A stretch of 64,000 bases of DNA from Nemertoderma westbladi (lineage: Eukaryota > Animalia > Xenacoelomorpha), in the NCBI GenBank assembly GCA_032718475.1, contig JAUCBJ010007725.1, forward strand, positions 62,001-126,000, read 5' to 3'. Each line of letters starts with the position of its first letter. Within the stretch, counting starts at the first letter, position 1. Below the pieces are notes generated by a model. The model saw only the letters and a program-made list of their open reading frames with translations, did not search any database and was not told the DNA's origin. Below, piece by piece: positions 33,313 through 60,550 of this stretch. The translations under genes and the position numbers were made by a program.

Positions 33313-33335
33313 AAAACTTTTTTTTGAAGGCGGAG

Positions 33336-35072: not shown

Positions 35073-36283
35073 TGTTCGCGCTTTCAGACCTTTGGCAGTT
35101 TAACCCGCCAAATTAGGATGTCTTCTAGATAATAATTCGCTTTTAGCCTATGACAAGTATTTGATTCACTACACTAGTCGAAACCAATCTGTGCGCGATC
35201 ATTCACCCGCTGGATATACCCGGGAGATTGGGTTCGACGGCTTAATCTTTTTGCTATGTAAGCCTAATGTATTATTCGACTGACAGTATTATATAATCTC
35301 TGACAATATTATTCACCTTCGGGAAATATTAACAGTTCCTTTAGGACGTGGCGCTCTATCTATATAAACAGAGTTATGACTTAAACTACTCACAACGATA
35401 TGGCTTAGTTATAATTCACATATATGGCGCATTCTTTAGGAAATGCTTCGTTATCAGTCTCACTCATACACAATGCTGCACAATACTGCACACTAATCTG
35501 CCGATCTTCACTGATTTTAGTCACATATAAAAGGAACACGGACCGACTCATGTAGGGTCTATCAAATAACATTAGATTCACTTCAAACCACTTTAACATA
35601 AGTCACAATCGTTATATGTAACCTTTCTCTCTTACCTTCGGTATATCAAGAATATTGGGGTTTCGGGGTTATTTATCGTTATTCCAAATATAATAATTCA
35701 TCAACCATATTATGAAGAACCGACAGTAAATAGCAGTATAACAATATAAAAGTATGCACCAGTGTGTGGTACATGCAGTTCAGTAAGTTGAGTTGCACAG
35801 TGATTCAGTGATAACGGATATATGTCCTTATAATTAAGCCTACTAGTGTTAGGCTAAAACAGCAAAGCACAAAATATTTCCAAGCCGCTCTCTCCTGGCT
35901 CAGGACAGAATGTAAACACTGCACAATAAGCATTGAGTGATTTCTAGGAAATTTCTGTACAAGAGCCATAAAAATGCTCTGATTGGCTGACTGAACTGAG
36001 AGACGCCGTAGAACAAAGAAAATCAACACGTATGAATGTCAGCTGTTAACCGTCGTCATAGTAACTACTGTTCAAGAGTAGCTATCACCTTTTGCGTCAC
36101 GGAATTGCCATAGAATCATCAACTATGCCTTCCACAGTACACATACGGAGGAAATAGCTCTTAGATCCTCTAAAAACACCGATACAGCAATAATACGGTT
36201 TCTTACACCTATTAAATCAACTACAGAGTATTTTAATGTAAAAATAATAAAAATAACGGGGCAATTCAGCAAAGGCTTTTACA
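35073..36283 (-). repeat. 3' LTR of giant BEL/Pao element
   Basis: Near-identical to 60551-61761. Confidence 0.95.
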
Positions 36284-36929
36284 CCGCTCCCAGAAAATGG
36301 GATTTTCAGTCTATAAAATATAAAAATCACAGTTTCTAAAACTAGTCGAGTAGACGCTTGGTACATTTTACTGACGAACCGTTCTCCAGCGTATGACTGC
36401 AATTTTATTTGCTCATGATGTTGTTCAACATTATAACAATAAATTTTCGCTATAAAGACTTTGGGAAAGGTTGAGCAATTTTTTTTATTGCCGTTTGTTT
36501 GGAGGATAAAATCATAACAAAATTACCAAAAAAATGTTAATCTATGTAGAGAATGTGTTAGCAACAACATTAAACATTCTAGAATATTATGTTTTTATGA
36601 TTCAAAACATTGCAGTAATAAGTTATATTTAGTTAGGCAATGAAAATTTATTATGGTTCAAAACACTGCAGTAATAAGTTACATTTAGGCAATGAAAATG
36701 ACCTTAAAGAGAGTTGGAGGCGACGAGTGTGCTTTGACTAAAATAATTAAAAAATATTGTGATTAATAGTGACATTTAGTTTTGAGAAAGATTGTCCTAT
36801 CTGGATCTACCGCCTTATGTAAGGCGTTAGATCCAAAAAATCCAAAAGTTGGAAACGCTAGAAAAATGCAGCGATAGCAATATGAGAAAGGACTTTTGCC
36901 ATTTGCGAAACAAGATTGCCTCGATACGA

Positions 36930-38185
36930 AGAATTACACGTACGTGGGGCCTTCGCGCAGCACGAGGCCCAGTTATGAGATACAAATTAATATCGAGCGA
37001 CTGTATCACAAAATCAGTATTTAACTTTATAAATTAGTAAAATTTAGAAATTTAACCACACCGCCAATCAATCAAAAAAAGAGGGACAGTACGTGTTCAG
37101 CCCTTTAAATCTGCACCCCCACCCCACCCCACCCCACCCCCACCCCACCCCACCCCACCCCACCCCCCCCCCCCACCCTTCCCACCCACCAATACATAAC
37201 CGCGACATCTACCACCCACGGAAGGTAGCACGAACTTATTTCCAATCGCACGTTCAATATGCGAAGCCAGGTGGTTTATAGGAATATAATCTACGCAGTA
37301 CTAAATACAGTCGATGCAGTAATGAATGATATTCAAATAATTTATTTAATATACTGTTAATGCCTCTGAAAACTTAGACAATTAAAATACACAGAAATCC
37401 CATCAAAAAATAATAAGCATAATATTTTGAGAAATAAACAATTTTGGATATAAGCCTTCTGCAGTGGTAATCTTATTGACTGACAATCATTAAATGAGAT
37501 CTGTCTATTACCTGAGACTAAAGAACACAGACTCTATAGTGTAATAGGAGGTAGGGAATGCAGGTTTCAATCTCGTTAGGTCTAGCTGGCAGCCGTGTGG
37601 CTAGTTACATACAACCCCCCTCCACTGGCATTCCCAGCAACTGGCTCCCTTACACACACATCCCCCATCTATGTACCAGCCAACTTGCAAGTTGGCCAAT
37701 AAATGATCAGTATTTAATGAGAATCCATTTTTTATGCCGTTTTAATTACTTTAGATCAATTAAAGACACAATTATTAAAGCAAATCACTTGAACTAATTA
37801 AAAACTATAATAGAATGGCGTATGTGGATTACATCTGTATAATTTTTAATTATAATTATTTAAATCTTATACTGTAAAACAATTAATTTCCTTTAAAAGG
37901 CAGGTTGAAAATGGTGTTTTCACCGTAATCAACTTAATTAACTAATTAACTGCTATTATCTTAGCTTCTCGAAGGCCACACGGAAATTCTACTTGGAAAA
38001 TTTCTAAACTTTTGCCAAACAACATGTGTACCAAGTTTGGATAGATTTCATCAAAGATTGGCTGAGTTATTAACGTTTAAAATTGAACACGACAGAACGA
38101 CAGAACGACAGAACGACAGAACGACAGGTTGATTAATGGTACCACTACGCTAAGGCTCACTCACTTCGTGGCTCGCCCCACAGTA
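36930..38185. mobile_element. DINE-1/Helentron-like element inside the giant LTR element
   Basis: gtggggccttcgcgcagcacg ... (gacagaac)n ... cttcgtggctcgccccacagta; opposite orientation to 30915-34373. Confidence 0.55.
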
Positions 38186-38679
38186 GCTGGAAATTTGAAG
38201 ATTCCGTTGGATTTGGGAGATGGTGAGCTTGAAGACCTAACTATTTTGGGAACCCGATTCTATCGAAGTTGTTACGTCAATTTTAAAGGTAATATACTTA
38301 ATGTACACCACCATTTAATATATAGAATATTGTATAATACTTATATTTCAAAAGATTTGTATTTTTGCTTTACAATTGTTGTTGGAAAATAATTTTAAAA
38401 CGTCTCCATCACCACGGCCCTATCAAGCATTATTGATCATTTTATAATACTTTTTATGTAGCTATTTTTAAGTTTTGATACAAATAAATGTTCTGGAACA
38501 TATTGCCGGTACCCAACATTTATACAATATTATTGTATTTTTTTTTTAATATTTCAGATTTTATTTATTTCTTTTAAAATATGGCAGATTTGTTTTGTTA
38601 TGATAGAAATATTTTTTCAACTTTATTTGTTTATAACATAGGCCTATATAAAAAAAAATGTGAATAAAACGCAACATAA

Positions 38680-39720
38680 AAGACCAATATTCTCTATGTG
38701 AGGCCTAATCCTATATAGAATCATTTTATTGTATATTTTGGCAGCTACCACAAGCAGACAGATCCCACGATAGTTTGTTGGTATACCGAGGTCTCCTTTC
38801 TTGGGGAGAGGCTTTAGTTGACCTTTAGTCCAAATTGGTGGTGGCTTTTCCCCTTTTAACATCCGGTTGCAAGCATTCAATAATGGTCTATTTAGCACTC
38901 CGGTTTTCCATACCTCTTCAGGGATTTCACCTAATCCACTACTCGCTTTATAATTGGACATGCTTTTAATACTTCTTTGGAGTTCGGCAGGTGCCTGGTT
39001 GTTTCTCAACCTTGTTGATGTTTTCGGCTGTTGGTTGTTCAGTTTTTACTTTGGAGTAGGAGTATCTTAACATCTTCTCTCTTGCGATTTTGAACTTTTT
39101 ACTGTGTGAGCTTCCTTTACTGCATTGTCAGTTCTGAGTTTCTCCCAGTCATAGTTGATTCGCTTGCTTGTCCTGAGTTTACTGGCTCTCAAACTGAGTC
39201 TGAGCTATGCAGTCTGGTCTGGTCCGAACAAATTAGGTTGAACGAGCTGACTACTGTATGCCTCGCAGTTAAATGTCATTATATTAGTTTATGATCCTGG
39301 AATTTTTATATTCGATGGGGTTTAGTGTCAGAAGTGTAAATGGACTTAGGAGAATTCATACTCAACCAATTGAAACTTTGACCGAATTGCTTTCTGCTGA
39401 ATTTGCAGACTGGAAGTGGATGGACGTTATAAACGTCCATTTCAAATGTCATTCATTATACTTGGTGGCTCATGACTAATCTGATATTCTTGAATACAAA
39501 TGATGTCGATGTAATATTCCATTGCCAGAGCTATAATAATGTTTGTTAAGCAGTTTCAGAGTGCGTGCGTTCATTGTAGCAATATTTAGTGACTTTCTAA
39601 GTTTCAACAGGTTGGTTCTCATTCTGCTCGACCTTCTTTCATTCACTGGGGTCGATAAAATGAGTACCTGTTGAATTACTGGGAACAAACCTTGGGATAC
39701 GAGTAGCACCAGTCATACCT
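38680..39720 (-). pseudogene. Degenerate, internally deleted RTE-like LINE fragment
   Basis: SLNIATMNARTL (APE motif I) near 39590; KASSGLGEIPEEVWK..LPKKGDL..NYRGICLL..AAKIYNKMILYRIR (RT start) at ~38700-38950; many stops between. Confidence 0.8.
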
Positions 39721-41051
39721 TCGGGTAGCAGCTACTGAAGAGGGAGACAGATGCATGTTATAGTGGCACGTTATTCTAACCAAATAGATAAACGAAAGTC
39801 AACAGAACAGGTTACAGTTTTATTTTTGGGAGTAACCAGCTGTTATTTGCGTCGATTTTTCCCTGGTGAGGGATGAATTTTGATTGCGACTAAAGGTCCT
39901 CCCTATCTTCGAAGAGATGCCTTCAGTCCGACTGTTTGATTGGCTTTTTTTACTATTGTATAATGCACAGATATTGATATATTATTCGAATTCCTAGAAC
40001 TTTTAATTCCTGCAAAGCTAACCTAGCATTGCGAATTATCTTGCACAAAATATAATGAAAGTATTATTTATTTCAGATGTAAAATTTAGAATTAAAGGAA
40101 ACTGCAGCAGTCAAGAATGAATATAAGAAGAGCGGGCTCGCAAGTATTATTCTGGAGAGCGGCTGTAGATAATATGCAGCCGGCAGCCGCCACTATAGCC
40201 TACAAACTTTGGTTGGATGTGGGAGCAATTTGTAAATAGGGCTTTCAATTTTTATTGTAAGTGTGCGAACAAGGACTGTGATAATGTGCAAATAAATATA
40301 TTATCAAACATTCAACTAAAAGTAATTACTGCAAATGCAGAAGTTGTTTCATCGACATTCCTTCACCTTTCATTTCACGGTCCACTGGTAATACCGGATA
40401 TCACCTTATAGAAACAACATCTCAGTTTGGGTAACCACTGCTACAGTAATTCGAAAAGGATAAACTTGCGCCATTCTGTCCATAAATGCGTCGGCCACAA
40501 AGTCCACATTCGATTTAACATATTTCCAACATATTTTCCACCAGTTCTTGAGGATACATGTCTAGCGAGAGTTAGGGTGCTGACAGCATATATTCCTGAC
40601 AGACAGGTATGTCGGTGCATTACTTGGCCACAGTGATGAGCTCCAAATTGCACACCGAGCCTTGTATGTATTACAAGTTCACTACCAGTAACAGTGTTTG
40701 CCATAACACTGCAATGTTACAAAATTTGTAACTCATAACTGCAAACATAATCCTTATTCCTTACATTTTTATTATCTCGAGCTTAGTTTCTCCTTATTTA
40801 TGATTGACCAGTGTCTAACTAGATAAATATACCCCTGCATGTTAATTCATTATTGTTGCTATGTAAAACATCTGTCGTTAAGATAAATAGTGTTCTAGAA
40901 AAAATTGCTCAATGCGGACTATGTAAAATATAACATAATTTCAAATGGTTTATACAAGTTAACACTTTCAGCAAAAAAAACTGCAGTCATACCCAATTTG
41001 AACGGTGGTCGGTACTGTCTACTTGACTAAACCTAAAGATACTCTAAACAG

Positions 41052-43373
41052 TTAGTCTTTCTTACGCGGACGGCGTTTACGCAGTTTCGTGAGGCTAGCA
41101 AGAGTCCTTTTCTCTTTGGGGCGAGCCACTTTACGAGGAGGGCTGTAGCTCCTAGGCGAAGGGTGCAATTCAATTGCATCAGAAGGTGTAGGGTTACGAT
41201 CGGTATACCCGCCGGTCGAAGTACCTGGTTGATTAATATCAACCTCAGTGGAGCGAGGTCTAACGGCCTTTAGAGCGCGTCTCAGGACAGCAGCTCCTAC
41301 GGGTCCTTGACGGGTCGTCTGGACACTAGCGGTGGGTGGACCGTGAGTGGTGAGGAACTTTCTCGGTTTAATGGTTCTCTCCAGCTCGCGTTCTCGTGTT
41401 CGATATTCATATGGTCGCCGAGATACTTCCTGTAGTTCAGGATGCGAGTTCACAAAGATGTCGCCATACTCAGGGTCCTGACGGATAAAATTGATCAGGT
41501 GATATGTGGTTATATCATTAGGGTTAACGTTTCTAAGGTATTTTCTGACAAACTTGGTGGAAATACACTCACCAACACGCTTCATTAACTCGTAACTTGG
41601 TACGCGTGTTTTCTGTTCAATCGACGCGAATAGATAAGGATGGAACGCGTAAACTCCCTCGTAAGCTCGTCCAGGGTAATAGCGATGTCGGGATTCGCAA
41701 TGTAAATCCGCGTTCGCTTCCCAAGCTCGGATGTATCGCAGGGTGATCATCTCGTCTACGCTCTCTAAATCGCGATTAAAGGGACAATTGTAACTTTCAT
41801 GTCCTTTAAGTTGACAGTAGTGACATTGAGTCATAAATTGTGGGCAGACGGCAAAAATATGAGAGTTATTAAGTCTGCAATAAGCACAATATATTTCCAT
41901 CATCGGTTGTTCGAGGAAATAGGAGCAAGGTACGCTCGAGTCTAGAGGGGTGAAGTGGTCTCTCGATGCGCATAATCGACAACGTTTTCGAGAAACGTAG
42001 TTGGCGTGTCGATAATCGTACGCTGTGAGACGCTGTGGACCTTGATACCACTCTATGACATAATCATTGTCACTGCTCCGGGAAGCTGTAGGCTGAATCG
42101 CTTCTGATTCCAAGCATACTGGTTCATCTTCCAGCTGTATAGACGAAGTGGGTGCGTCGGTCTCAGTAAGTGGATCCACTGTCTGTATTTCCACGACAGA
42201 ATAACCTGTAGGTATTCGGGGTCTTTGTATGACAGATGAATGTAAGTTCTGTATACAAACGTCTTGAAAAACGGCAAATCCAGCGCTACTCAGCTTCTCC
42301 GCAGCTGAGTCTCTCAGACTGAGTTTGGTCAGCGCGCGGTCCTTGAACTGACTATCGACGTTACGGAACGGAGTCAGAAAGCGCCGGAAACATTCGAAAC
42401 GTATAAACTTATTGTGTTCGTCTAACTTGGCGAGTTTAGTTCCGAGTATTAATGGATGAGCGCGTATGGTACGACTGCACACATCGGCTAGCCAACCGGC
42501 AAGTGCTGCGTTTTCAAAGATCGTGTATATAGCTAAGGAAGGGCGAAGTGGAACACTCATAAAGCTATATACGGCACCAGGCGCAGTTAATGGTCCATCA
42601 AAATATAAACGAGAGTAATGATCTCCATATACTTGCTGGTAATTGGTAGGATTTCCAACTTTGAAATTCCATCCATATTCTTGAAAGGCAAGATGTCCGA
42701 TGGATGTCCGTTGTACCTTAGTAATGTTGCTGGGTGTATTGGCATACATAGTGCGAAAGAAACCTCGGCCTTCGGCCCAAGGAGCAATCAGCTGAGTATC
42801 AACGAAAGGGTATGGAATGTTTTCCATATTCCGGAAGTCGTTTTGGAGATCTCCATAAACAGCTGAGCCGATTTTTAGGATTCTTTCGTTAAACAACATT
42901 TCGAGCACAGGTTGGGGTAACATTGATCCATCGATACCCATGGCCGGTTTGCGCTCGGTGTCGGTGACGTAACGCTGCGCGAGCTCGAATTGTCCATGTC
43001 GAAGTTTCTTTTGTGTCTCCGTAAGGGTTTCAAAAGAATAATCAATCACGTCGGAACACGCTCGAGTGAATACGTGGGTAGAACCAGCGAGTCCCCGTAT
43101 ATGTATCATTCGCGTAGTTCCTAGTTCTCCCACCGGAACGCTACCTTCGTTGTCATAAGTAACAACGCCATACATCTCGATAACGTTAAGAGTCTCGTTC
43201 CATTCTTTAGTGGCGTTTTCGAGAGTCATTCCCACTGGATGCCACAAAGTAGCGCATTCGCTAGCATTGGGTAAATCTCTATACTTTAAGCATTGTGTAG
43301 TATAGGTTTCCACATCTCCATATCGTTTTATTCTTTCTTCCTCGAATAACACGTCAAGATTCCAGTGCACCAA
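41052..43373 (-). CDS. Accessory retroelement protein, C-terminal part: DEDDy (WRN/EXD/Mut-7-like) 3'-5' exonuclease + three CCHC zinc knuckles + basic tail; frame is open upstream to ~43538
   Basis: ExoI VVTYDNEG, ExoII LPQPVLEMLFNERILKIGSAVYGDL, FVDTQ, SIGHLA, ExoIII-like VPLRPSLAIYTIFE; CRLC..H..C, CAYC..H..C, CHYCQLKGHESYNC; KLRKRRPRKK. Confidence 0.75.
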   Translation of the reverse strand: MVHWNLDVLFEEERIKRYGDVETYTTQCLKYRDLPNASECATLWHPVGMTLENATKEWNETLNVIEMYGVVTYDNEGSVPVGELGTTRMIHIRGLAGSTHVFTRACSDVIDYSFETLTETQKKLRHGQFELAQRYVTDTERKPAMGIDGSMLPQPVLEMLFNERILKIGSAVYGDLQNDFRNMENIPYPFVDTQLIAPWAEGRGFFRTMYANTPSNITKVQRTSIGHLAFQEYGWNFKVGNPTNYQQVYGDHYSRLYFDGPLTAPGAVYSFMSVPLRPSLAIYTIFENAALAGWLADVCSRTIRAHPLILGTKLAKLDEHNKFIRFECFRRFLTPFRNVDSQFKDRALTKLSLRDSAAEKLSSAGFAVFQDVCIQNLHSSVIQRPRIPTGYSVVEIQTVDPLTETDAPTSSIQLEDEPVCLESEAIQPTASRSSDNDYVIEWYQGPQRLTAYDYRHANYVSRKRCRLCASRDHFTPLDSSVPCSYFLEQPMMEIYCAYCRLNNSHIFAVCPQFMTQCHYCQLKGHESYNCPFNRDLESVDEMITLRYIRAWEANADLHCESRHRYYPGRAYEGVYAFHPYLFASIEQKTRVPSYELMKRVGECISTKFVRKYLRNVNPNDITTYHLINFIRQDPEYGDIFVNSHPELQEVSRRPYEYRTRERELERTIKPRKFLTTHGPPTASVQTTRQGPVGAAVLRRALKAVRPRSTEVDINQPGTSTGGYTDRNPTPSDAIELHPSPRSYSPPRKVARPKEKRTLASLTKLRKRRPRKKD

Positions 43374-43525
43374 TCGAGTTTTAATGAATCCATCAAGATT
43401 GTAAGGAGGTAATATTTCTTTCTCTATTCTGGAAATATTATACGGTTTTCGAAATGAGTTTAGTTTAACTAGCTGATCTAGATGTTTTTGTAGTTGTTCG
43501 AGTTCGACGAGGTCGAGAGGATTGA

Positions 43526-45007
43526 TTAATGGTAGTCTTTAAAATGAGGAACCATCGAGGGGTGGAGGATCGTTTTGGAATAGAGATCCGTCACGAGAAT
43601 TTGAGTTTCTGGTTGGGCTAAAGCAGCTTCTTCCCTCTCAGTCAGCTCTATATGTCTCTCCTCGAGCTGATTTTCCTCCGCTTGTTGCTGCAAGCGCTCG
43701 TCCAGGAATTCCTGTAAAGAGTAGGTTCGTCCACGTTCGATGTCCTCCTCTAGATTTTGTATTTCTCTATCGAACTGGGGTAAAGCGAGTTCCTTCACCG
43801 CTTGGACTTGTTGTTGCAATTTACGTTTCTCCAAGCAATCGTAAGTTCCTTTTCCGATTTTCTGCCGAATAGCGTCCAATGCATTTCGTATCACGCTCTC
43901 TTCGACTTCTGTAACAGGTTGGATCGGAGGGAGGCCAGGACGGTTGTAGGGGTTAAACGGTGATATTAGATGACCGCGTCCTAGTCCAGCGAGGTAAGGT
44001 TGGCGAATATCTAACGAACCCACTACCGGAGTGCCACCAATCAACTGTTCAGGCAACACTAGATCTTTGAACAGTGAGTACAGCTCGGGAGGATCCGTAA
44101 TACTATTAGGATCGAGAGTTTGAGGTATCACTTGGGAATGAGGAGGTCTGACCGAGTATTCCGGAACTCTGATCATGGGTTTATTCAATGATCGTTTAAG
44201 GCGCGCGACCATAGGTGATACGTCGAAAAGGTTTCGCTCGAAACTCCCATAAGTATATCGCGTAAAACTGTGTTTAGCGCAACGTCTCCGTGGATGTTTA
44301 TGCCTTTCGATCTGCTGGTTAGGTCTAGGGCATTCGTCACAGTAATACCAAAGACGCACGTCTTGAAGGGGAAACGCGGGTGATCGCTCTCCAGTTTTAC
44401 AATATTCCTCCATCTGTTCGAAGCTATCTGGAACGACAGGTAGTGGTCGATCGGCGGTAAGATACATCATCGTAAAATAGAGCCGTTTGAGTTCCATCAT
44501 AGGGTCTGGATGTATACCTTGAGGATATCGAGTTTCGAGGTATGGTTGACTGGCAACATTGAGATAGGTCTCTCTTAGAAATTCTAGATATTCGTTGAAG
44601 CCGCTACGTTTATCAGGTTCTTCAACGTCTTCTCTTTCGAGTTTATTTCGAATAGAGTTCTCGTGTTCTATTCTCGATTTATCGTTTCGACTCCGCTGGG
44701 TATGATATTTAAATAAAACTATTTCCCTCTCGGTGTCGACATCGTCGGTGTCGTGTAAATCAATAGGATGACCAGTGGTCAAGAAGTCCATATACGTACC
44801 ATTACAATGCGTATAGCGAGCAGTGAATTTTCTATAGTCCAATTCACGCGTAAGTTGCTCCTGGGACATTGGCGGTTCGATATAACGACCATCGTCCTCC
44901 GTAGTAGTTGGATCAGCGTCGCCGCGTATCAAGCTATCGACAAACGCTTGTAAAGGTAGAGTATATCTCTCCCTGATACCAAGATCATCTTCTATTAATT
45001 CAGTCAT
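43526..45007 (-). CDS. Accessory retroelement protein, N-terminal part (493 aa, unknown function; Cys/His cluster and coiled coil)
   Basis: Long open frame with coding-like composition; CDEC..H.H..C; Q/E-rich C-terminus; overlaps the downstream frame by a few codons. Confidence 0.7.
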   Translation of the reverse strand: MTELIEDDLGIRERYTLPLQAFVDSLIRGDADPTTTEDDGRYIEPPMSQEQLTRELDYRKFTARYTHCNGTYMDFLTTGHPIDLHDTDDVDTEREIVLFKYHTQRSRNDKSRIEHENSIRNKLEREDVEEPDKRSGFNEYLEFLRETYLNVASQPYLETRYPQGIHPDPMMELKRLYFTMMYLTADRPLPVVPDSFEQMEEYCKTGERSPAFPLQDVRLWYYCDECPRPNQQIERHKHPRRRCAKHSFTRYTYGSFERNLFDVSPMVARLKRSLNKPMIRVPEYSVRPPHSQVIPQTLDPNSITDPPELYSLFKDLVLPEQLIGGTPVVGSLDIRQPYLAGLGRGHLISPFNPYNRPGLPPIQPVTEVEESVIRNALDAIRQKIGKGTYDCLEKRKLQQQVQAVKELALPQFDREIQNLEEDIERGRTYSLQEFLDERLQQQAEENQLEERHIELTEREEAALAQPETQILVTDLYSKTILHPSMVPHFKDYH

Positions 45008-45567: not shown

Positions 45568-46632
45568 ATGTTATTTAATAGTAATTCTTTCAACGGCAAG
45601 CGATTTTCTGGATGGGACATTGGCTCTAACAATCGTGACATCAATCTTGGAGATCTAATCGCAGTAGATGATACTACTAGCAGTGGCGTACCTAGAGTGT
45701 CTCATAATACTGGTACTTACAGCTCTATCGCTGCTCGTACACTAGGTTATTCCAGGTACGGTTCTGCACCATATACAGTAAGGTCACCAAATATAAATCG
45801 TGCCGTCATCTCTAATTCCAGTACATCGCCAGTATTCCAGCTTGGCCCTAGTTTTTCAGCCGATGCGCCAGCAAATCAAGGTGTAGTTCATTTCCCGCCA
45901 ACTACTTGTAGTGCTGTACACTATGAGCCGCTGTCCGATAATACCGTCGGCACCAATGCTATAGATGCCGATCTGAGTACTGTAAATGTACATTTACCCA
46001 ATAACTTTCTAGGTGTAGGCACAGTAGATGAACCACACGTTTCTAATTTACTTATTGGTGCACCCATACCAGACTCTGTTAGTGGTAGCCATGCCGGAGA
46101 GGGAGTTTCCAGTTTTGAAATTCACTGCGAGACTAACCATAGCGTTGTAATTCCAACTATGGGTGCTAGTACCACGTTATTGGAAAGCGGCCCCATGGAG
46201 GCTTATTTGAGTCCACCAGTTCCAGCGTCTAAGCAAATTATACCTCCCCAGGAGGTCAATGTGACTGATTCAAATATGGATGAAACAGTTGGAGGAGCAC
46301 CTCCTCTACCTGTAGTTCCGCCAATTGCCTCATCCGTAGTGTCTGCTAACCGCAGAAAACAAAGATCTATAAATACTATCGGTAGTTCGTTAACTAGGGC
46401 AGCCAGCGGCCAACGGAACACGGCCCCGAGAGGCCGTGGGCCTGGCCGTCCACGTTGCAACAGCCTAGGTGCGGTGAACAGAAAGGGTGACGGTGAAAAC
46501 CCTTATGGGACAAGATCCCAGTCTGGCACCGTAAACGCAACGCAGCCTAATTTAAATGGTGGCGGTAGTAATAGACGCCAACCAGACAACTCTATGGGCC
46601 CTCAGTCCATCATTCCACCGGGCAAAGGTTAA
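45568..46632 (+). CDS. LINE ORF1-position protein (354 aa, S/P/G-rich, basic C-terminus)
   Basis: ATG-initiated ORF directly upstream of and overlapping the ORF2 frame; no recognisable RRM or esterase motif. Confidence 0.6.
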   Translation: MLFNSNSFNGKRFSGWDIGSNNRDINLGDLIAVDDTTSSGVPRVSHNTGTYSSIAARTLGYSRYGSAPYTVRSPNINRAVISNSSTSPVFQLGPSFSADAPANQGVVHFPPTTCSAVHYEPLSDNTVGTNAIDADLSTVNVHLPNNFLGVGTVDEPHVSNLLIGAPIPDSVSGSHAGEGVSSFEIHCETNHSVVIPTMGASTTLLESGPMEAYLSPPVPASKQIIPPQEVNVTDSNMDETVGGAPPLPVVPPIASSVVSANRRKQRSINTIGSSLTRAASGQRNTAPRGRGPGRPRCNSLGAVNRKGDGENPYGTRSQSGTVNATQPNLNGGGSNRRQPDNSMGPQSIIPPGKG

Positions 46633-49600
46633 ACACCAATTCCAAGTTAGAAACAAGACTGAAGTTTGGTAATTTTAATGTTGAGGGTATAGTAAATAGT
46701 ATTGTGGAACCTGATTTTACCAAATTAATTTCTGGTTATGACTTTTTCTTGTGCACTGAAACGTGGCTTAGTCCAGTTGCTGAGCTTGATTTAAATATAA
46801 ATGGCTACTCAAATGTATCCGTTAACAGGAAGCGAAAAAATAAAAATGCTAAAAGATGCAGTGGCGGAATTACACTATATTATAAAACAAAATACGATGG
46901 GGCGGTACATGTTTTGTGTGACAGTGATGACGACATCCTATGGGTACTTTTTGAAGCAAAAAAATTCGGTATCATTACAGATATTGTTCTAGGTCTGGTG
47001 TATTTACCGCCGAACGGTTCAACAGCAGCCTTAGGGGACCCAATTTCTGTATTTGATAAACTGGAGGAAGGAATAATAAAGTTCAGTTGTTTGGGTGAAC
47101 TTATGATTTTTGGCGATTTCAATGCTCGAACTAGTACCGAGCCTGACTTCATCCCCAATGACAGACCTTGTGATACTCTTGACAGACTGCTTCCTAATGA
47201 TGACATGATTCCGAATAGCCATCAGTTTAATACTACTGACCTTCCAATTGAGACAGATAGGAAAAACACCGATTTAAAAATTAATAACTATGGCTGGAGA
47301 CTACTAACTCTTTGTAGAAATTCTGGACTCCGAATAGCCAATGGGAGAGTTGGAACTGATGGTTTAGTCGGTGGCGAGTGTACTTTTCACTGCACTGGTA
47401 AAAATAAAGTAATTGGGAAATCTACTATCGATTACTTTATCGCAAGCCCACTTTTATTTAAGCTATTCTCAGAACTATATGTCGGCGATGAAAACTTGTT
47501 TTCAAAACACCGTGTAGTCACGGCTGTAATAACTGGGATAGGTGAACAACTGCACTGCGGCTCACCTATCCCACCAACTGACTCTGTTTGCAATGATAAA
47601 TTTGTAGAATCTAAACACTTCCACTGGCGAGATAATAAAGCTGACAGTTATAAAAATTTCTTAGACAACCCCGATATTAAGGCTACTTTGAACAACATTA
47701 GCGATGACTTATGTGATGGTATATTTTCCAAAGAAAAAATTAACAAAGCTGTTGGCAGTTTCAATGAGTGTTTACATTCAGCTGGGGACCAGTACTTTGC
47801 AAGTACAAAAACTGACACAAAGGAAAAGGGTGACCTAGGAAACCACCCCTGGTACAACAGCGAGTGTTCTACTAAAAAGGCGGCATTTCGTACAGCGCTA
47901 AATAACTGGAATAGGAATCGGTCTCCAGAGGCCCATTTGCTATTATCAAAAGCACGTGGAGTTTATCTTAGTTGTATACGGCGGACAAAATTTGCATTCA
48001 AGGTTTCCCAATCAAAAAAACTTGCAGAATACTCTGTAACGGAAACTAAAAAGTTCTGGAAACTTCTGTCTAAAGCTAGTCAGTCCAACCGTGGCAGTGA
48101 TTGTACAAAACATATTTCATTAAATGTCCTTGAAAATCATTTCTCCAACCTGTGTAAGAATAATAGTGATGACAATTTTATTGACATTGGAATTACGCCC
48201 CAAAGACCAAATAATTTCAATATGCATAAAGATATTTTCGAAAATTTACTTGGAGATGCTTTTACTGAAGAGGAAGTTCAGGGTGGAATAAGAAATCTCA
48301 AGAGAGGTAAAGCATCCGGTGCTGATCTCCTAATAAATGAATTCTTTGTAGTTGGCTGCTCGCAGTTGACACCTGTGATGACAATACTTTTCAATGCTGT
48401 GCTCTTCTCTGGGCATTTTCCCGAGGCATGGACCGATGCTATTATCAGCCCGATTTACAAAAACAAAGGTAGCAAGTCAGAGGGTGGAAACTACAGGGGA
48501 ATCAGTCTATTAAGTGTTCTTGGTAAACTCTTTACAGGTTTAATTAACTCTCGTTTAACTTGGTGGGTCGATGTATCAGGACTCCTAAGTGACGCACAGG
48601 CGGGTTTTAGGAAAGGGTTTAGTACTGTAGATCATATATTTACGCTGAACACTATTGTGAATCACTTAATAAACTCAAAAATGAAACTATACGCATGCTT
48701 TGTCGATTTTCGAAAAGCATTCGATAGTGTGGACAGACAGGCACTCTGGTTAAAATTAAGTAACATGGGTTTTTGCGGGAGAATTTTTAATATTATTAAG
48801 GAAATGTATAAGGCAATAAAATCACGTGTTCGTTGGGATGGTCAATTTTCACAATCTTTTGACTGTCTAGCTGGAGTCTTACAGGGCGAATCTCTATCGC
48901 CCCTTCTTTTCTCACTGTTTCTCAATGACTTTGAGAGTCACATGTCTACATGCGGGGTTGACAGCTTGGACATCGGTACCTTACAACTGTTTATGTTACT
49001 CTATGCGGACGATATTGTCCTCGTTTCCCACTCGTCCCTTGGCCTGCAGAGATCTTTACATGCTTTGTCGGACTACTGTAAGTTCTGGGGACTCAGTGTA
49101 AACCTTGATAAGACTAAAGTGGTTGTCTTTAAAAAGGCGGGGTCAATGTCCCCACTGGATACATGGACTTACAATGGCACTCCCGTTCAGGTGGTGTCAC
49201 AGTATTTGTACCTGGGAGTTGTTTTCTCCTCAGGGGGTAGCTCTTTAGCAGCTCAGAAATTGTTGTGTGACAAAGCTAATAAGGCCATATTTTCGTTGTC
49301 GAGGTATATGTATTGTTTTCCTACGGCGCCTGTGCAACTTTTATGCAAACTGTTTCAATGTCTTATTAAACCTATTTTAAATTACGGTTGTGAGGTCTGG
49401 GGATTTTGCCCTGCATTGGGTATCGAGCGAATCCAGCTGTCTTTCTTAAAAAGAGTGCTTAAATTGAAATCGTCAACCCCAAACTATATGGTGTACGGCG
49501 AGTGTGGTATTTTCCCGCTCATAGTTGAAAGGAAAGTGAGTATTCTAAAATATTGGCTAAAACTTATTACAATGCCAGATTCTAGAATCGCAAAACAAGC

Positions 49601-50243
49601 CTACACATTGGCTGTAAATGATTGTTTACGCAAACCGTCGCTTTCAAATTGGGCTTCGCGAGTACGGGATTTATTGAACGGAATTGGCTTATCTTGGGCT
49701 TGGCGTGACCAGTTCGTACCAGAGGAACTAAAATTTTTAGCTATAGCTAAACGGGTACTTAAAGAACAATTTATTCAGAATTGGTGGTCCTTAATAAATA
49801 ATTCGCCCAAGGGTACTCTTTATGTAAAGTACTGCTTCCGACCTGAATTATACCTTAGTGTGCTAACTGAACATCCACAACTGAGATATTCGCTTTCGAA
49901 GTTCAGATGTTCTTCGCATCATTTGGCTATAGAATCTGGGCGATGGCGAAGAGTTGCTCGCTCCGATCGGGTCTGTCAAGTATGCAACACCGACCAAATA
50001 GAAGACGAGTATCATTTTTTGTTTGTGTGCCCTAAATATAACGCTCTGAGAACCCAATATTTAGATTCGCATCATAGCGCAACCCCTCCCAGTTTTGAAA
50101 AATTTCGCCTATTTCACTTGTCCTCGGATTCATCCGTAATTATGAATTTGGCACTTTTTGTCCACAAAGCAATGGCCCTGAGGGCAGAGGTATTAACACC
50201 GACTATAGTTGGTGTAACAAGCATAGCTTCTGTTGTACTCTAG
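46575..50243 (+). CDS. LINE ORF2: AP endonuclease + reverse transcriptase + C-terminal CCHC finger; start codon uncertain
   Basis: FGNFNVEG (upstream of the annotated GTG at 46704), TETW, GDFNAR, TIDY, YRGISLL, QAGFRKG, FVDFRKAFDSV, QGESLSP, YADD, YLGV, LAIESGRW..CQVC..EDEYHFLFVC. Confidence 0.93.
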   Translation, partial: TPTRQLYGPSVHHSTGQRLNTNSKLETRLKFGNFNVEGIVNSIVEPDFTKLISGYDFFLCTETWLSPVAELDLNINGYSNVSVNRKRKNKNAKRCSGGITLYYKTKYDGAVHVLCDSDDDILWVLFEAKKFGIITDIVLGLVYLPPNGSTAALGDPISVFDKLEEGIIKFSCLGELMIFGDFNARTSTEPDFIPNDRPCDTLDRLLPNDDMIPNSHQFNTTDLPIETDRKNTDLKINNYGWRLLTLCRNSGLRIANGRVGTDGLVGGECTFHCTGKNKVIGKSTIDYFIASPLLFKLFSELYVGDENLFSKHRVVTAVITGIGEQLHCGSPIPPTDSVCNDKFVESKHFHWRDNKADSYKNFLDNPDIKATLNNISDDLCDGIFSKEKINKAVGSFNECLHSAGDQYFASTKTDTKEKGDLGNHPWYNSECSTKKAAFRTALNNWNRNRSPEAHLLLSKARGVYLSCIRRTKFAFKVSQSKKLAEYSVTETKKFWKLLSKASQSNRGSDCTKHISLNVLENHFSNLCKNNSDDNFIDIGITPQRPNNFNMHKDIFENLLGDAFTEEEVQGGIRNLKRGKASGADLLINEFFVVGCSQLTPVMTILFNAVLFSGHFPEAWTDAIISPIYKNKGSKSEGGNYRGISLLSVLGKLFTGLINSRLTWWVDVSGLLSDAQAGFRKGFSTVDHIFTLNTIVNHLINSKMKLYACFVDFRKAFDSVDRQALWLKLSNMGFCGRIFNIIKEMYKAIKSRVRWDGQFSQSFDCLAGVLQGESLSPLLFSLFLNDFESHMSTCGVDSLDIGTLQLFMLLYADDIVLVSHSSLGLQRSLHALSDYCKFWGLSVNLDKTKVVVFKKAGSMSPLDTWTYNGTPVQVVSQYLYLGVVFSSGGSSLAAQKLLCDKANKAIFSLSRYMYCFPTAPVQLLCKLFQCLIKPILNYGCEVWGFCPALGIERIQLSFLKRVLKLKSSTPNYMVYGECGIFPLIVERKVSILKYWLKLITMPDSRIAKQAYTLAVNDCLRKPSLSNWASRVRDLLNGIGLSWAWRDQFVPEELKFLAIAKRVLKEQFIQNWWSLINNSPKGTLYVKYCFRPELYLSVLTEHPQLRYSLSKFRCSSHHLAIESGRWRRVARSDRVCQVCNTDQIEDEYHFLFVCPKYNALRTQYLDSHHSATPPSFEKFRLFHLSSDSSVIMNLALFVHKAMALRAEVLTPTIVGVTSIASVVL

Positions 50244-51682
50244 AAAGTTAAAGATTATAACCATCTTGAAATACATATAAAAACTGATGTTGGTAAATAA
50301 CTCCCTCTCCCAATGTCTATCGCTTTAAATTGTATATATTATCGTATGTACGTATTTGTATTTCATCTGTACCATATATTTTCGTACTATCAAGATCAAC
50401 TACGGTATACGATTGTGAATTTTGGCTTTGTTAACGGTAATTTTGGTAATGGCCAACGTTATATTGGTGGATTAGCTGGCGCTCGGCAAATACTTACAAT
50501 TAATAACATTTGGTGCTTTCGATATAAATTAATATGTGTTACCGGTACATTCACTATGTGACAATTTCATTAACTTGAATGTCGATTGATTAATAAACAA
50601 AACATATTTATTTAATAGTCAATGTTCTGTTTTATACATGACTTTATGAATTTTTATCAGCTATTGACTATGTTTGGGAGACTTTCGCACACTCATACGC
50701 ATAAGAAGATAAATCTCCGCTCCTGTGATCTATTAATTAATAGAATTTTGGGAATGTTATAAATTGCGTAAAAATGGCAATTTATTAAATTCATTAAAAG
50801 GCATGAATTTAAATTATTCCCTGAAATTTTATTATTTACTAATTAAATGGACATATTTTGATTCTAGAATATGTCTGGGGACACAAGATCCTTAATTCTA
50901 TGACAATTGTCTTTTTAAGAATATCGGTAAATGCTACGATATCTTAATTGACTAGAATTGTTGAAGGATCTGAATTTTACAGATTTTGATTTATTGGATT
51001 AGCAAATATTAAATAATTAATATTTGAGATGGGCACCGATTTATTCCAGAACTTGTCTGGGGACGTTAACCACTGATTCTAAGATTTGTCTTTCAAGTAT
51101 ATCGGTGGGTGCCGCGATATCTTAATCGACTAGAATTACAGATGGTCAAAGGGTTTAACAGATTTATTTTGCGTTATACGCTACTGTTAAAGGGACATCA
51201 CGCTACTATATGTATTATTTAGTATACGGTATGAGAGCAATATCGCACGAAGCAATGTCAGTGTGAAGAGGCAAGTCGTTTCCAAGGTCTACCCAGAGCT
51301 TGGTTTAGCCGAGACACGAGGATCTGAACTTTGCATTCCTAATACTCTGCCTACCAATAATACTTGAATATAGTAGTGGCTTTATTGTACTTTAATAAGT
51401 ACGGACATTTCATCTTACTGGAGTTACGTATTTATAATATAATACGGACAGTAAGGAAAGAGAAAAAACAATTGTTTCTCACTGTCACACTAAATATAAT
51501 ATAAGTAATTACGTACGCAATAAACATGAACATATTGCACTATTCTACTAAATAATCGCTAAATAATATTCTACTAAATTAAATAAAACGATTATAATAA
51601 AATTACAGAGTAATACATACATAAATATAAAAATAATAAAATAATATAAAATAATAGAGTCACACGCCCACTCCGAACGATA

Positions 51683-53943
51683 TTAAGTTGGGGAGTCCCT
51701 AGATGTCGGTTGGATTAGGGAAGTGGTCGTGGGAAGAGTTTCTTGCCTTCCATAGTTTCCGGAGAGCTCTCTGTCTCTTTCCAGTAAACATAAACGACCC
51801 ACTGGGCGATTAAGCTGTTGAGTCTCAAAGACTATCCCTGGTTTCTTAAAGTTACGCCGCATGACGACGAGCTCTACTGATCGCACCAAACCATCGCTCG
51901 AGATATGAGTCTCGATGATACGTCCTGTTTGCCATCGCTTACGTGGGAGATCGGGGTCCACAATAAGCACCATGTCTCCAGCGCTGACGTTTTCTTGCTG
52001 CGCAAACCACTTAGTTCGAAGTTGTAGAGTGGGCAGGTAATGTTTCTCGAAATGGTCAGCGAAACGACGGGATAGCAACTGCATAAGTTGCCAGGTTCGA
52101 CGGCAGTACTCGTCTCCGTCTGTGATCTCCGATCGTGGGAGCATGGCTACGGGTTTCTTCAGTAGAAAGTGCGCGGGTGTTAGCGCTTCCAGGGAATCAG
52201 GACTTGAAGAGACTGGCATAAGCGGTCTTTCGTTGAGATAAGCGGCGATTTCCTCCATTAACGTCCGCAATAGTTCGTCGGTGAGATAAGCGCGACAAGG
52301 CACAATAAAGTGGAACGCAGTCTTCACGCTCCTAATCAATCTCTCCCAACTTCCTCCCCACCAAGGGGCGTCGGCGGCGTTGAAGGTCCAGCTAGACGCT
52401 GTTATCCTTAGCTGATCGTCCACCTGTCTTTTGTTCCAGTCCTTTACGTAAGCTTGAATTTCGTTGTTGGCGCCAATGAAGTTCGTTCCCTTATCCGATC
52501 TCATCGTGTTACTGGTTCCGAAGCGAGCGATCTGTCGTCGTAAACTCAACACGAAGCTGTTGGTGGATAGATCATTTACCATATCGAGATGGATAGCTCT
52601 ACAAGTCATACAAACGAAGATGACACACCATCTCTTGACTATAGTCCGAGCACGATATACTTCAATAGGGCCAAATAAATCCACACTGGTATTAGTAAAG
52701 GGTGGTTCGTAGAAGCTTACTCTTTCCCTAGGTAATTCTGCCTCTCGCTGTGTCAAAGGCCTACTGAATGCTTTCCTATAGGGTATGCAGTTCCTAAGGA
52801 CTTGGTTCAGAGCCCTACGGGGTTTATAAAAATAGTAGCGAGTTCTAATTTCGCTCAGAACTCGTTCTCTTCCAGCATGATACAGTTTGCTATGAACATC
52901 TACAATCATCTTGATTTGTATGTCAAGATTTCTAATGAGTATGGGAAACTTAGTGTCAAAGGATAAGGGGGCGTTGGTGAGCCTGCCTCCAACACGTATT
53001 AACCCATCTATCATGGTACTAGAGAAGCGATCCCTTAAGCGCATCTGCGGATTTCTTAACAACAGGAAATACTTATCGGGATCCTCATAGCATTGTAGGA
53101 GTCTCAGCATCTGTTTGTTGGTTTCATCATGCTCCTGGTAACTGATCTTCTCCTTTAGAAACCTGTTGGATATCTTATATTTAGGAAGATCTTTAACAAC
53201 ATGGACTCTTGCAGATGTTGATGGAGCATCATCACTATTGGTCTTTGTCCCGGAGTAACGATGATGAAAACATCGTTTTAAACAGGTGACGGCTTTACAG
53301 AGCCGATTCCAGGAACTGTAATGACGTATCACTCTCTGCAGGAGAGGTGAGAGTCCTTGCGAAATATCTGGTATTCCAGATTTCCAATCCTTGTCACGGA
53401 TTTCTAAGACTTCTTTATCCGTGGCTGTGGGTTTCTGATCCAAAGCATCCTCTCCGGAAGTAAATAATACAGATAGATCAACCGCAGGTTTAAACAACTT
53501 CGATTTACTCGCTCGAGTTTTGGGTTTAACTTTCTCCGCTCCCTTGGCCTGTCTGATCTCTGCTGTTGTGAGATGGGGAGGCCATTCTTCTTCTTCTCTG
53601 TAGAGAAAGTCGGGTCCACCTAACCATTCGGGAGTATTTACCAATTCCTTTGGAGTCGCTCCTCGGGAAGCGATGTCTGCTGGATTAATCGTTCCTGGGC
53701 AATGTCTCCATTGGTCCATCGTCGTGCGACTAAGTATGATGGCTACTCTGTTGGTAATGAAGACGCTGAACTGACAGACTTCATTGGTGATATACTCTAA
53801 CACGAGTAAAGCGTCGGTCCAATAGACAGTTTTCTCTAATGGATAGTCAATCTGTTCTGTTACATTCCGGCCGATGGCTGTAGCGTATAGAGCCGCTTTT
53901 AACTCCGCTCGAGGAACTTTCAACTTGTTGTTGATTAATGCCT
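51683..53943 (-). CDS. pol: Giant BEL/Pao pol, 3' part (RNase H remainder + integrase)
   Basis: VPRAELKAA, YWTDA, NPADIASRG, H..H..CIPY (degenerate HHCC), VDLFGP, SDKGTNF, GSWERLI, RWQTGRI. Confidence 0.9.
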
Positions 53944-53957
53944 TAGAAGTAATCAAG

Positions 53958-56297
53958 TCCCAGATAGACCATATTCTGTTTCGTAGGAAATACAGGAGCT
54001 CTATACAAGACTGTAATGCATTCACACTTCGACCCTTCTCCATTGATCACCGCCTTATTGTGGCCAAGGTAAGACTTAGTCTGCGTGCTAGCAGAACAAC
54101 GAAATCTGCCTTGCCACGGCATGACTGGTCCTCTCTGTTGCAACAGCCAAGTGTGAGATCCAGCTTCACACTACAGCTGAGCAACAGGTATGAGGCTCTT
54201 GCCTCTGAGGCGGCAGATCACTGTGAGGGCTATACTGCCTTTACAGAAGCAGTTAAGTTAGCAGCTGCAGAAACAGTTCCTGTATACCCTCGAAACAGGA
54301 AAAGGGCCCCCTGGACTGACAACAAAATTCAGAAGTGCCGAAATGACCTTCATAAGGCGCAGAAAGAGTCCCGACTCAAACAGACTACAGCGGCCAAGAA
54401 TGCAGTTAAAGCTGCATCTAGGTCCCTGAACAGGCAGTACTCTGTTAATCTACAGGAGCTAATAAACCAACAGGTTGATGCCATCAATGATGCTGACGAC
54501 AGCAGGCAATCATCCCAGGCATGGAAATCGATCAATCTGCTTACTGGGCGGAAAAGCCAACCAACCACCAAGGTTAAGGCTGAATCACCAGCCGATCGCC
54601 TCAATGGTTGGAAAGCCCACTTTGAAAAGCTCCTCAATAATGACAGGGTATTGCCTGATAACTTTATAGAAGTAAAAGTGTCTGAGTCTGTACTCCCAGA
54701 TATTCCCATTGGCGATATCTCCTTTGCAGAAGTGAAGGCTGCTGCAAAGAGCATTAAGACCAATCGTGCCAGTGGAGTAGATGGTGTTCCCCCTGAGGTC
54801 TTTAAAATACCTGAGTGTTTAAAGCTCATCTATCCCATCATAGTAGACATGTACCGTACAACAAGAGTCCCACAAGAAATGAAAACAAATAAGTTGGTGC
54901 CAGTTCCCAAGAAGGGCAACCTAACACTCTATGGTTCTTTTCGGGGAATCTCATTGATCTCGATTGCTGCAAAACTATACAATAGAATTCTATTAAATCG
55001 CATCAGGGATCCCATTGAGAGACTGCTACGTGGAAATCAGAATGGGTTCCGTAAAGGTCGTGGGACCATGGAGCCCATTTTGGCACTTAGAAGGATAATT
55101 GAAGAGTTATCAAAAAAGAAAGACAGGCATCTGGCTGTTATCTTTGTTGACTTCTTCAAGGCCTTTGATTCAGTCTCTCGCTCACGTATGTTCAGCATAC
55201 TTTCATTATATGGGATTCCTGATGAAATTATTGCAGCAATCAGATCAGTATACGATGGTTCGACAACATTTGTGTCTACTGTTGACGGTGACACAGAACC
55301 ATTTGAAGTGTTATGGGGCGTCCTCCAAGGAGACACACTTGCACCATTCTTGTTCATTATTGTGGTTGACTATGTTCTACGCATGTCCTTAGATCATCAT
55401 AATGAAGATGGGGTGATGTTAACTCCACCTACTGGCTCCAGAAGTCGAGGAAATCCTGCCAAGTACCTAACTGATCTAGACTTTGCTGATGACTTAGGAG
55501 TACTCTCAGAATCATTAGAGGGAGCCCAGCGGCTCCTCAGCTCATTAGAACATGCTGCTTCTAGTGTTGGTCTTTTTATTAACTCCAGAAAGACCAAAAT
55601 TCTGACAGTTAACTTTGAAAGTCCTCAGCAAGTCTCTGATCGGATGAGCATAAGCTCAAAGGATGGTATGCTTGAGCATGTGGACGACTTCTGTTACCTG
55701 GGATCATGGATCCGGAAGTCAGGTGAGGACCTTCGAATACGTAAGGGAAAGGCATGGGCAGCCTTGAATAGGCTTTCCAGGATTTGGAAGTCACCTAGAA
55801 TTAATCGGAAACTTAAGGTCCGATTATTTAGAGCAGCAGTAGTTCCAGTACTCCTCTACGGGAGTCCATGCTGGGCTCTAACTGCTGAGGACACCAAATC
55901 TCTGGATGGCACATTCACAAGAATGCTACGCCGGGTACATTGTGTCAAGTACAATGCACACATCTCCAACCAGACACTATATAACATTGGAGGTGTCTCA
56001 TTGGTTCCCCCAAGCTTGACACTAGAACAAAATCGCCTCCGCTTTGCAGGACATTGCTTTCGCCGTGAGGACCAGCCTGTGCATAATCTTGTACTTTGGC
56101 AGCCTCATGGAGTGAATAAGCATGGTGGACAGCCCATGACTTTCTTGAGACGCATCTTAAAGGACACTGGCCTTAAAGATGCGGATGATCTAGCAAATGT
56201 CATGGGTGATAGGGAGTTATGGCGGTGCAATTTTGTTGACAAGCCGGCACAGCATTCTTAAAAATGCAGCTGCAATGCAGCATGCCGATCCTAGTAG
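53958..56297 (+). mobile_element. 5'-truncated RTE-clade LINE inserted in the BEL pol; ORF open from 53958 to 56261
   Basis: SQIDHIL (APE end), FRGISL, QNGFRKGR, FVDFFKAFDSV, QGDTLAP, FADD, YLGS; TAG-repeat 3' tail; TSD TAGAAGTAA(Y)CAAG at 53944-53957 and 56298-56311. Confidence 0.92.
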
Positions 56298-60539: not shown

Positions 60540-60550
60540 ATATCCGTTAT
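60540..60550 (-). promoter_or_regulatory. Non-tRNA primer-binding site candidate ATAACGGATAT
   Basis: Abuts the 5' LTR; lacks TGG; exact complement of LTR 11-mer at 61289-61299. Confidence 0.6.

Follow-up and report, generated by a model that had tools for sequence, protein, structure and literature searches.

A 64-kb stretch of the genome of the xenacoelomorph Nemertoderma westbladi (contig JAUCBJ010007725.1 of assembly GCA_032718475.1, positions 62,001 to 126,000; hereafter the window, in whose own numbering all positions are given) contains, on the minus strand, a BEL/Pao long terminal repeat (LTR) retrotransposon with an uncommon cargo. About 4 kb of open coding sequence lies inside the LTRs, 3' of the integrase and on the same strand as pol (45007-41052), as an earlier sequence-only reading of the window had pointed out. 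This stretch consists of two frames that overlap by 13 nt. Accessory frame A (43526..45007) encodes 493 amino acids (aa) from an ATG at 45007 and contains one cluster of Cys and His residues (228-251); no homologue of the frame was found, and its best ESM Atlas score, 0.80 to KDZ-associated cysteine clusters (CxC domains), is a lead only. Accessory frame B (41052..43538) is open for 828 codons from stop to stop (725 aa from the first ATG), a stop-free run with a chance probability of about 6e-20.

Within frame B we predict an RNase D/WRN-like DEDDy exonuclease domain (residues ~115-360; 42459..43196) with an insertion of about 35 aa after the third strand. It is followed by three tandem CCHC zinc knuckles (residues 520-538, 551-565 and 572-585; 41784..41981) and by a basic C-terminal tail (41055..41144), which resembles a nuclear localization signal when judged by eye only. 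The knuckles, which the sequence-only reading had also described, exceed chance, with 0/5000 shuffles containing two or more. Peak 19-residue hydropathy reaches 1.19 in frame B and 1.07 in frame A, so that neither contains a membrane helix, and for this reason the accessory open reading frame (ORF) is not an env gene, in agreement with the earlier conclusion.

Structure of the host element

The LTR element as a whole extends from 61761 to 35073 and spans 26.7 kb, including three later insertions; once these are subtracted it measures about 14.6 kb, with the gag core and protease also missing. The 5' LTR (60551..61761; 1,211 bp, TG...CA ends) and the 3' LTR (35073..36283; 1,211 bp) differ at 3 positions over 1,211 bp and are flanked by GTATG on both sides (61762-61766 and 35068-35072), a 5-bp target duplication, and a polypurine tract (PPT), GGGAGCGG (36284..36291), directly precedes the 3' LTR. 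These traits, namely direct LTRs within 0.2-1.2 kb, TG...CA ends, a target duplication and a PPT, fit BEL/Pao (Belpaoviridae). Between the LTRs, a leader of 2.3 kb is followed by an ORF of 202 aa, by pol, by about 1.6 kb without coding sequence, and then by accessory frame A, accessory frame B and the PPT. The 5' part of pol (56307..57723) comprises the reverse transcriptase (RT) and the Pao peptidase A17 family region, recognized by domain and homology matches, and the 3' part (51683..53943) comprises the end of the PF05380 region, the integrase zinc finger and core, and DUF5641, recognized by Pfam. Pfam places pol in BEL/Pao (PF05380, E 4.7e-29; PF18701, E 4e-20; also PF17921), a blastx comparison with BEL polyproteins returned 63 rows with a best E of 5e-62, and the domain order RT, RNase H, integrase is of the BEL type.

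Similarity to intact BEL polyproteins starts at about 57684, corresponding to approximately residue 650 of those proteins, and as judged by this comparison the gag core and protease are missing from the window copy, presumably through a copy-specific deletion. The 202-aa ORF at the gag position (57680..58288), for which no homologue was found, is likely a remnant stump of gag. Compared by blastx with 109 long ORFs from BEL loci, the leader gave no match; it contains a 288-bp tandem duplication (89%) and short repeats with palindromic cores (59612-60185 and 60381-60500), and a perfect 9-bp hairpin immediately follows the primer-binding site (PBS). Rfam and tRNA scans gave no matches.

The predicted exonuclease domain

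The sequence-only reading assigned five residues of frame B to the ExoI, ExoII and ExoIII motifs of DEDDy exonucleases, with Glu in place of the ExoIII Asp. The motifs are present as named and, in the stop-to-stop numbering of frame B used here (the earlier numbers plus 55), correspond to D129 (43154-43152; formerly D74), E131 (43148-43146; E76), D230 (42851-42849; D175), Y338 (42527-42525; Y283) and E342 (42515-42513; E287), all of them predicted to be catalytic. In an alignment of 46 sequences, D129, E131, D230 and Y338 are invariant and E342 stands in the Asp column. The reference set was composed of bacterial domains of the RNase D, EXD2-like and Pol I exonuclease types. Profile-profile comparison gave a probability of 73-82% and a score of 39-40, as against 20 or less in 100 column shuffles, and with 49 reference domains, in a comparison without shuffle control, a probability of 94% and an E of 1e-7; the block that aligns corresponds to ExoII, and ExoIII forms a second, weak one. 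In the ESM Atlas, 25 of 30 matches fell in clusters in which half of the members carry PF01612 (score 0.92). RNase D was the top NCBIfam family for frame B (E 0.003), at 16.9 bits for TIGR01388 as against a cut-off of 299.

Among 1.84 billion representatives, frame B had a sole homologue, a 648-aa protein from a 9,449-bp ENA contig (P0001; E 7e-8). Its layout is the same, with a D-x-E motif, a KxGS...D motif and a PL...Y-x-x-x-E-N motif followed by three knuckles. Although the two proteins are only 26-30% identical, all five catalytic positions keep an acid or Tyr in both, and P0001 favours D129 as ExoI in a pairwise alignment. The fourth catalytic acid is Glu in P0001 as well as in frame B (Glu342), which therefore would make the domain a DEDE variant rather than a canonical DEDDy member. 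P0001 was also the only relative found among the 7,987 candidates of a two-sequence profile search, and word-index protein searches gave 0 of 6,193 candidates for frame B and 0 of 6,427 for the domain profile. No relatives of frame B, P0001 or the integrase were found in viral contigs, nor of frame B in metagenome contigs, and neither tblastn against plasmids and phages nor PADLOC produced a match.

A structural model guided by the 46 aligned rows reached a mean predicted local distance difference test (pLDDT) score of 62, with 114 of 259 residues at 70 or above, motif blocks at 80-93 and low confidence in two insertions (~35 and 28 aa). It matches WRN, diDNase/NrnC, RNase D, Nibbler, EXD1 and Rrp6 at Z 11.5-12.9; for WRN, Z is 12.9 with a root-mean-square deviation (rmsd) of 2.9 over 158 aligned residues, and for RNase D 12.7 with an rmsd of 3.5 over 163. 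Because the top Z values are tied, no DEDDy subfamily can be named as the nearest.

Several observations weigh against an exonuclease. Searches of Pfam with the window protein and of PDB sequences with the domain found no exonuclease match and no match, respectively, and a hidden Markov model of 29 bacterial domains scored the window protein no better than shuffles. The top three Atlas matches are unnamed, with 166 shared features, fewer than the 170 typical of true members. The ExoI register hinged on trimming the N-termini, since an untrimmed MAFFT alignment placed ExoI at D166. The single-sequence, unguided fold failed (pLDDT 32). Foldseek with the guided model found no match at E <= 0.001, the best being RNase D at 3.7e-3, and since the guide rows are themselves exonucleases, the guided model shows compatibility only and is partly circular. 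Furthermore, the last acid is Glu, and the RNA-binding relatives Egalitarian and EXD1 are among the structural matches. The earlier assignment of a DEDDy-type domain is nevertheless supported: its motifs and the Glu-for-Asp exchange by the alignment, the Atlas and the profile match, and an RNase H-like fold by the profile-profile and Atlas searches, whereas Pfam, the unguided fold and, for the RNase H-like fold, the Foldseek threshold did not bear it out. Taken together, the sequence and model evidence makes it very probable that the domain of frame B has an RNase D/WRN-like DEDDy (RNase H-like) fold. We further lean toward a functional active site, in which Glu in place of the last Asp would be a conserved trait of the family.

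The accessory gene in other copies of the element

In the window copy, the accessory ORFs touch neither pol nor the LTR, being separated from pol by a 5-kb long interspersed nuclear element (LINE) and from the 3' LTR by a 4.7-kb inverted-repeat element. The LINE (45583..50607, plus strand), a low-copy element foreign to the family element, has apurinic/apyrimidinic (AP) endonuclease and RT domains in 1,222 codons and is bounded by a 12-bp target duplication (45571-45582 / 50608-50619). It is apparently young, with the endonuclease-RT frame intact and ORF1 5'-truncated, and is presumably L2/CR1-like. The 4.7-kb insertion (36343..41029) has 13-bp terminal inverted repeats (12/13 match, TAG...CTA) with GTT, a 3-bp duplication, on both sides; it is non-coding, yet contains an RT fragment (38644-39045) and simple repeats, and its ends resemble those of Academ DNA transposons, a tentative class assignment. 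A third insertion, likewise foreign, is a LINE-type element inside pol (53953..56297, plus strand) with an RT frame of 804 codons and a 9-bp direct repeat (53944-53952 / 56298-56306).

Other copies are known only from short assembled contigs. Four of seven runs were compared, of which X1, X3 and X4 represent three studies and one may be the source of the window itself. In X1, X3 and X4, contigs join the end of frame B (41029-41039) directly to the PPT region (36338-36342), bypassing the 4.7-kb insertion; the earlier view that the ORF is a part of the element is thus sustained in three runs. Summed depth, which is not to be taken as copy number, is 1e5-1e6 over the LTR, pol and both accessory frames versus 50-170 over the nested LINE (X1, X3), and 4,103 X1 contigs fall on 1.3 kb of the accessory gene. 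On account of this depth contrast and contig number, the accessory gene belongs to a large, many-copy BEL/Pao family. On the pol side, loose contig ends at 45590 and 50611 mark the edges of the nested LINE, and from these, the target duplication and the depth step we infer that pol and frame A were joined across it. Some copies lack the exonuclease part, with joints at 41196-43650 (X1, X3) and 42080-44633 (X4), and some deletion variants drop the whole stretch from the integrase to the LTR.

At 43535 and 43542, where the two accessory frames meet, contigs of X3, X4 and X5 stop or show loose ends with a median length of up to ~100 nt; one contig of X5 bridges the junction with intervening sequence. 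Other copies have extra DNA at this point, and the accessory gene is probably broken in the window copy. Frame A probably represents the N-terminal portion of a single long accessory gene, and there is a good chance that intact copies carry a single such gene of more than 1,300 codons. A programmed frameshift between the frames was considered and rejected: the -1 frame stops at the only slippery-looking run, and other copies have the extra DNA there. With its three nested insertions, the break between the accessory frames and no gag core or protease, the window copy is dead, or at least not autonomous.

Frame B is under strong purifying selection. For the interval 42450-43750, the variants considered are the best-supported 40 of 293 rows and not a random sample; 38 of the 40 lie within frame B, and 33 of the 38 are synonymous, versus one third expected for random transitions (p 1e-11). 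Among the same rows there is no indel in frame B, and the sole change listed at a catalytic codon, at D129, is silent. Upstream of the first ATG, 9/11 variants are synonymous (p 0.001), including those at codons 17, 23 and 46, which lie 5' of the TTG at which the 773-aa ORF of the sequence-only reading starts. Selection upstream of both the ATG and the TTG argues that translation begins further upstream and that the protein is likely longer, so that the earlier length does not stand. Among the listed variants, 7/13 are synonymous in frame A (p 0.10) and 6/6 in pol.

None of 78 metagenome BEL loci contained a homologue of frame A, frame B, P0001 or the 202-aa ORF, although this is a weak test, given that only 11 of the 78 have at least 2 kb of downstream sequence. 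In several metagenome BEL loci (L159, L163, L208 and L209), the integrase is followed by a third ORF of 236-362 aa with C2H2-like zinc fingers at its start, and this too is an accessory gene other than env.

A self-complementary primer-binding site

The sequence-only reading had also called attention to a self-complementary PBS, and this proved real. The 11 nt after the 5' LTR (60540..60550) lack a TGG start and are complementary at 11/11 positions to LTR position 463-473 (61289..61299), the candidate self-primer, with the pairing stopping exactly at the LTR boundary; an LTR/PBS match of 11 nt arose in 2/5000 base shuffles. The 18-nt tRNA-Arg/Gly PBS of the profile by the international committee for virus taxonomy (ICTV) is absent, there being no TGG at the LTR boundary, a criterion that an unusual tRNA primer would escape. 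Membership in BEL/Pao stands because of pol, and the PBS is a deviation from the profile.

The predicted pairing depends on where the RNA begins. For an RNA whose first nucleotide lies at the LTR segment or 6 nt before it, the PBS helix has a predicted probability of 0.9-0.99, which drops to 0 with a start 21 nt before the segment; the minimum-energy fold computed for a transcript that begins 21 nt upstream likewise lacks the helix. The LTR site has a TATAA just 11 nt upstream and the LTR contains no AATAAA, so that the site could also lie near the RNA 3' end, where it could serve as a 3'-end primer. The folding of the PBS fits best with Tf1-type 5' self-priming, by analogy and from the folding models. 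In Tf1, it is RNase H that generates the end of the primer, without need of an exonuclease. Among 16 regions scanned in metagenome BEL loci (with partial LTRs), 4 had TGG-type sites and 0 an 11-nt self-complement. Nothing linking the self-complementary PBS to the nuclease gene was found.

Other elements and genes in the window

A second BEL-like element (20335-29139) has a gag-protease frame of 749 codons and a pol frame of 1,102 codons, in the same frame with one TAG (24808-24810) between them. It is flanked by 466-bp direct repeats (99.4%) without TG...CA ends, has leader pieces of 252 nt and 152 nt repeated near its ends, and contains no third ORF. A third BEL fragment (31123-33881), with integrase and DUF5641, is frameshifted and lies between 305-bp direct repeats at 98%. 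Two GC-rich frames (13215-14917, minus strand) resemble an F-box protein gene, presumably FBXO9-like, and may represent a host gene or a retrocopy lying between repeats. Tandem satellites of 68-69 bp, 21 bp and 55-59 bp occupy 5729-7304, 17100-19300 and 63033-64000.

Comparison with known systems

The closest published parallel, as the sequence-only reading had remarked, is found in bdelloid rotifers, where DEDDy ORF3s have been described in the LTR retrotransposons Juno and Vesta and in Athena/Terminon elements; according to the available text, the DEDD signature is changed to DEED and activity was not demonstrated (Rodriguez, Kenefick, Arkhipova 2017, PMC5408684; this work is also cited in the excerpt of PMC6338049). 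Terminons are described as giant elements with DEDDy ORFs (excerpt of PMC6431247). Because DEDDy third ORFs were thereby already on record for rotifer LTR and Penelope-like elements, the earlier proposal of a candidate new retroelement system was overstated. By published description, rather than by sequence, Juno and Vesta share with the present element a third ORF that is not env and lies between pol and the 3' LTR, an RNase D-like DEDDy domain without a membrane helix, and the replacement of one Asp by Glu, giving DEED in the rotifers and DEDE here. They differ in that the host element is gypsy-type there and BEL/Pao here, that here the domain is followed by three CCHC knuckles and then a basic tail in a coding region of about 4 kb, and that near-neutral variation was described among close ORF3 copies, mainly env- and GDSL-like ones, in contrast to the strong purifying selection on frame B (available text of PMC5408684).

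According to the ICTV profile, Belpaoviridae are 4-10 kb long, with env-like third genes and tRNA priming (PMC8742986). The present element resembles them in its 1.2-kb LTRs, its PF05380 and PF18701 pol, its PPT and a third gene after the integrase, but this gene encodes a predicted nuclease rather than a glycoprotein, there is no tRNA-type PBS, and the length is at least 14.6 kb. The third genes of BEL/Pao elements are only env-like in the excerpt of de la Chaux and Wagner (PMC3118150), and an exonuclease is mentioned for BEL/Pao neither in PMC8742986 nor in the available parts of PMC3118150, PMC13524379 and PMC12440569. No exonuclease ORF or self-priming was found for BEL/Pao in the literature searched, a scope outside which lie Repbase, GyDB and Dfam, where annotation is possible. 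Cellular DEDDy proteins (RNase D, WRN, EXD2, Nibbler/Mut-7, Rrp6, Egalitarian and EXD1) share the motif order and spacing and, according to the model, the fold, whereas identity is below 21%, ExoIII has Glu, two insertions are present, there is no HRDC match, and knuckles are attached in frame B.

Two further systems bear on single features. Tf1 and Tj1, gypsy-type elements, have a PBS complementary over 11 nt to a segment of their own LTR and no tRNA-type start, according to the available text of PMC4600332; the same complementarity (11 of 11) is seen here in a BEL/Pao host, a likeness at the level of sequence. Dada DNA transposons carry a DEDDy domain inside the transposase with DEDD kept (excerpt of PMC3706591), so that both are mobile elements with a DEDDy domain, which there is a transposase insert, whereas in the retroelement described here it sits in a distinct accessory gene. 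Judged from its predicted domains, the element described here extends the DEDDy third-ORF theme to BEL/Pao, with a new combination of exonuclease and triple knuckle.

Possible functions of the accessory protein

Animal retrotransposons are restrained by small-RNA pathways, and we know of few element-encoded countermeasures. Our favoured reading, to which we would assign a probability of roughly 40%, is that the accessory protein is an RNA-binding 3'-5' exoribonuclease that acts in trans against host RNA-based silencing. The CCHC knuckles would capture RNA, the basic tail would place the protein in the nucleus, and the exonuclease would erode the 3' ends of, or sequester, silencing RNAs or double-stranded element RNA; that all of these steps operate jointly is plausible, though short of an even chance. 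We rank this reading first because of the selection on frame B, its architecture, its dispensability in cis and the fact that unrelated elements have captured such domains time and again. Copies lacking the exonuclease part are expected if the exonuclease is not needed in cis, and the recurrence of DEDDy domains in unrelated mobile elements is more in line with a general advantage than with a role in a single step of LTR replication. A viral precedent is the Lassa nucleoprotein (NP), an exonuclease described as clearing double-stranded RNA to suppress immunity (excerpt of PMC3429428).

It is less likely that the nuclease acts on the element's own nucleic acid, either trimming a 3' overhang to the 11-bp PBS duplex, and hence to a self-primer, or cleaning RNA or cDNA ends in the particle. 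The full complementarity of the PBS, ending exactly at the LTR boundary, speaks for such a role, as does the placement of TATAA together with the absence of AATAAA, given which an exonuclease could expose a site near the RNA 3' end. On the other hand, the helix depends on the RNA start, which fits Tf1-type priming with an RNase H cut. Although 3'-end processing is proposed for the rotifer enzymes in the available text of PMC5408684, DEDDy ORFs also occur in elements without LTRs (same source, and excerpt of PMC3706591).

We also regard as improbable that a weak or dead nuclease is kept as an RNA-binding adaptor, the long protein exporting, localising or packaging element RNA. Egalitarian and EXD1 are RNA-binding adaptors of this kind, and their presence among the structural matches of the guided model would be in keeping with such a role, together with the Glu in the last Asp column of both known members, the domain insertions of ~35 and 28 aa, the three knuckles and the basic tail. 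Pseudo-nucleases, however, usually lose some catalytic residues, and here an acid or Tyr is retained at all five positions by two otherwise diverged proteins. The rotifer enzymes, moreover, likewise show an Asp-to-Glu change with the other motifs intact, according to the excerpt of PMC5408684.

A proofreading partner of the RT, which would permit an unusually large element genome, is very unlikely. The element measures about 14.6 kb even without insertions, gag core and protease, as compared with 4-10 kb in Belpaoviridae (PMC8742986), the same fold is found in Pol I-type proofreading domains, giant Terminons carry DEDDy ORFs too (excerpt of PMC6431247), and the nidovirus ExoN offers a precedent (excerpt of PMC7968707); yet RNase D-type references outscore Pol I-type ones (probability 73% versus 8%), the accessory gene itself is much of the extra length, and the copies are diverse. 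Finally, the ORFs might be suspected to represent a host gene or some unrelated insertion between the LTRs, as the window copy holds three nested insertions and the joint between pol and frame A across the LINE is not among the 15 of 298 joints listed, but this is largely refuted by the direct joints of the gene end to the PPT in three runs, a depth like that of pol and unlike that of the LINE, the absence of introns, the absence of a host homologue among the 1.84 billion representatives, and the fact that no target duplication or inverted repeat, for which no dedicated search was made, was seen next to the ORFs.

In its boldest form, which we hold to be doubtful, the proposal would be that a tRNA-independent BEL/Pao lineage depends on a giant protein of more than 1,300 aa, whose DEDE exonuclease and triple knuckle form a family of their own with P0001, and which either makes the primer by trimming the RNA 3' end to the PBS duplex or suppresses silencing by PIWI-interacting (piRNA) or small interfering RNAs (siRNA). 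If this were true, primer trimming would be a new priming route; alternatively, the element would encode a nuclease suppressor of piRNA/siRNA silencing, borne by a retrotransposon. The self-complementary primer site in the same element constitutes a second, separable hypothesis. The compact domain, suited to expression and assay, makes the role of nuclease cargo genes in retrotransposons directly testable.

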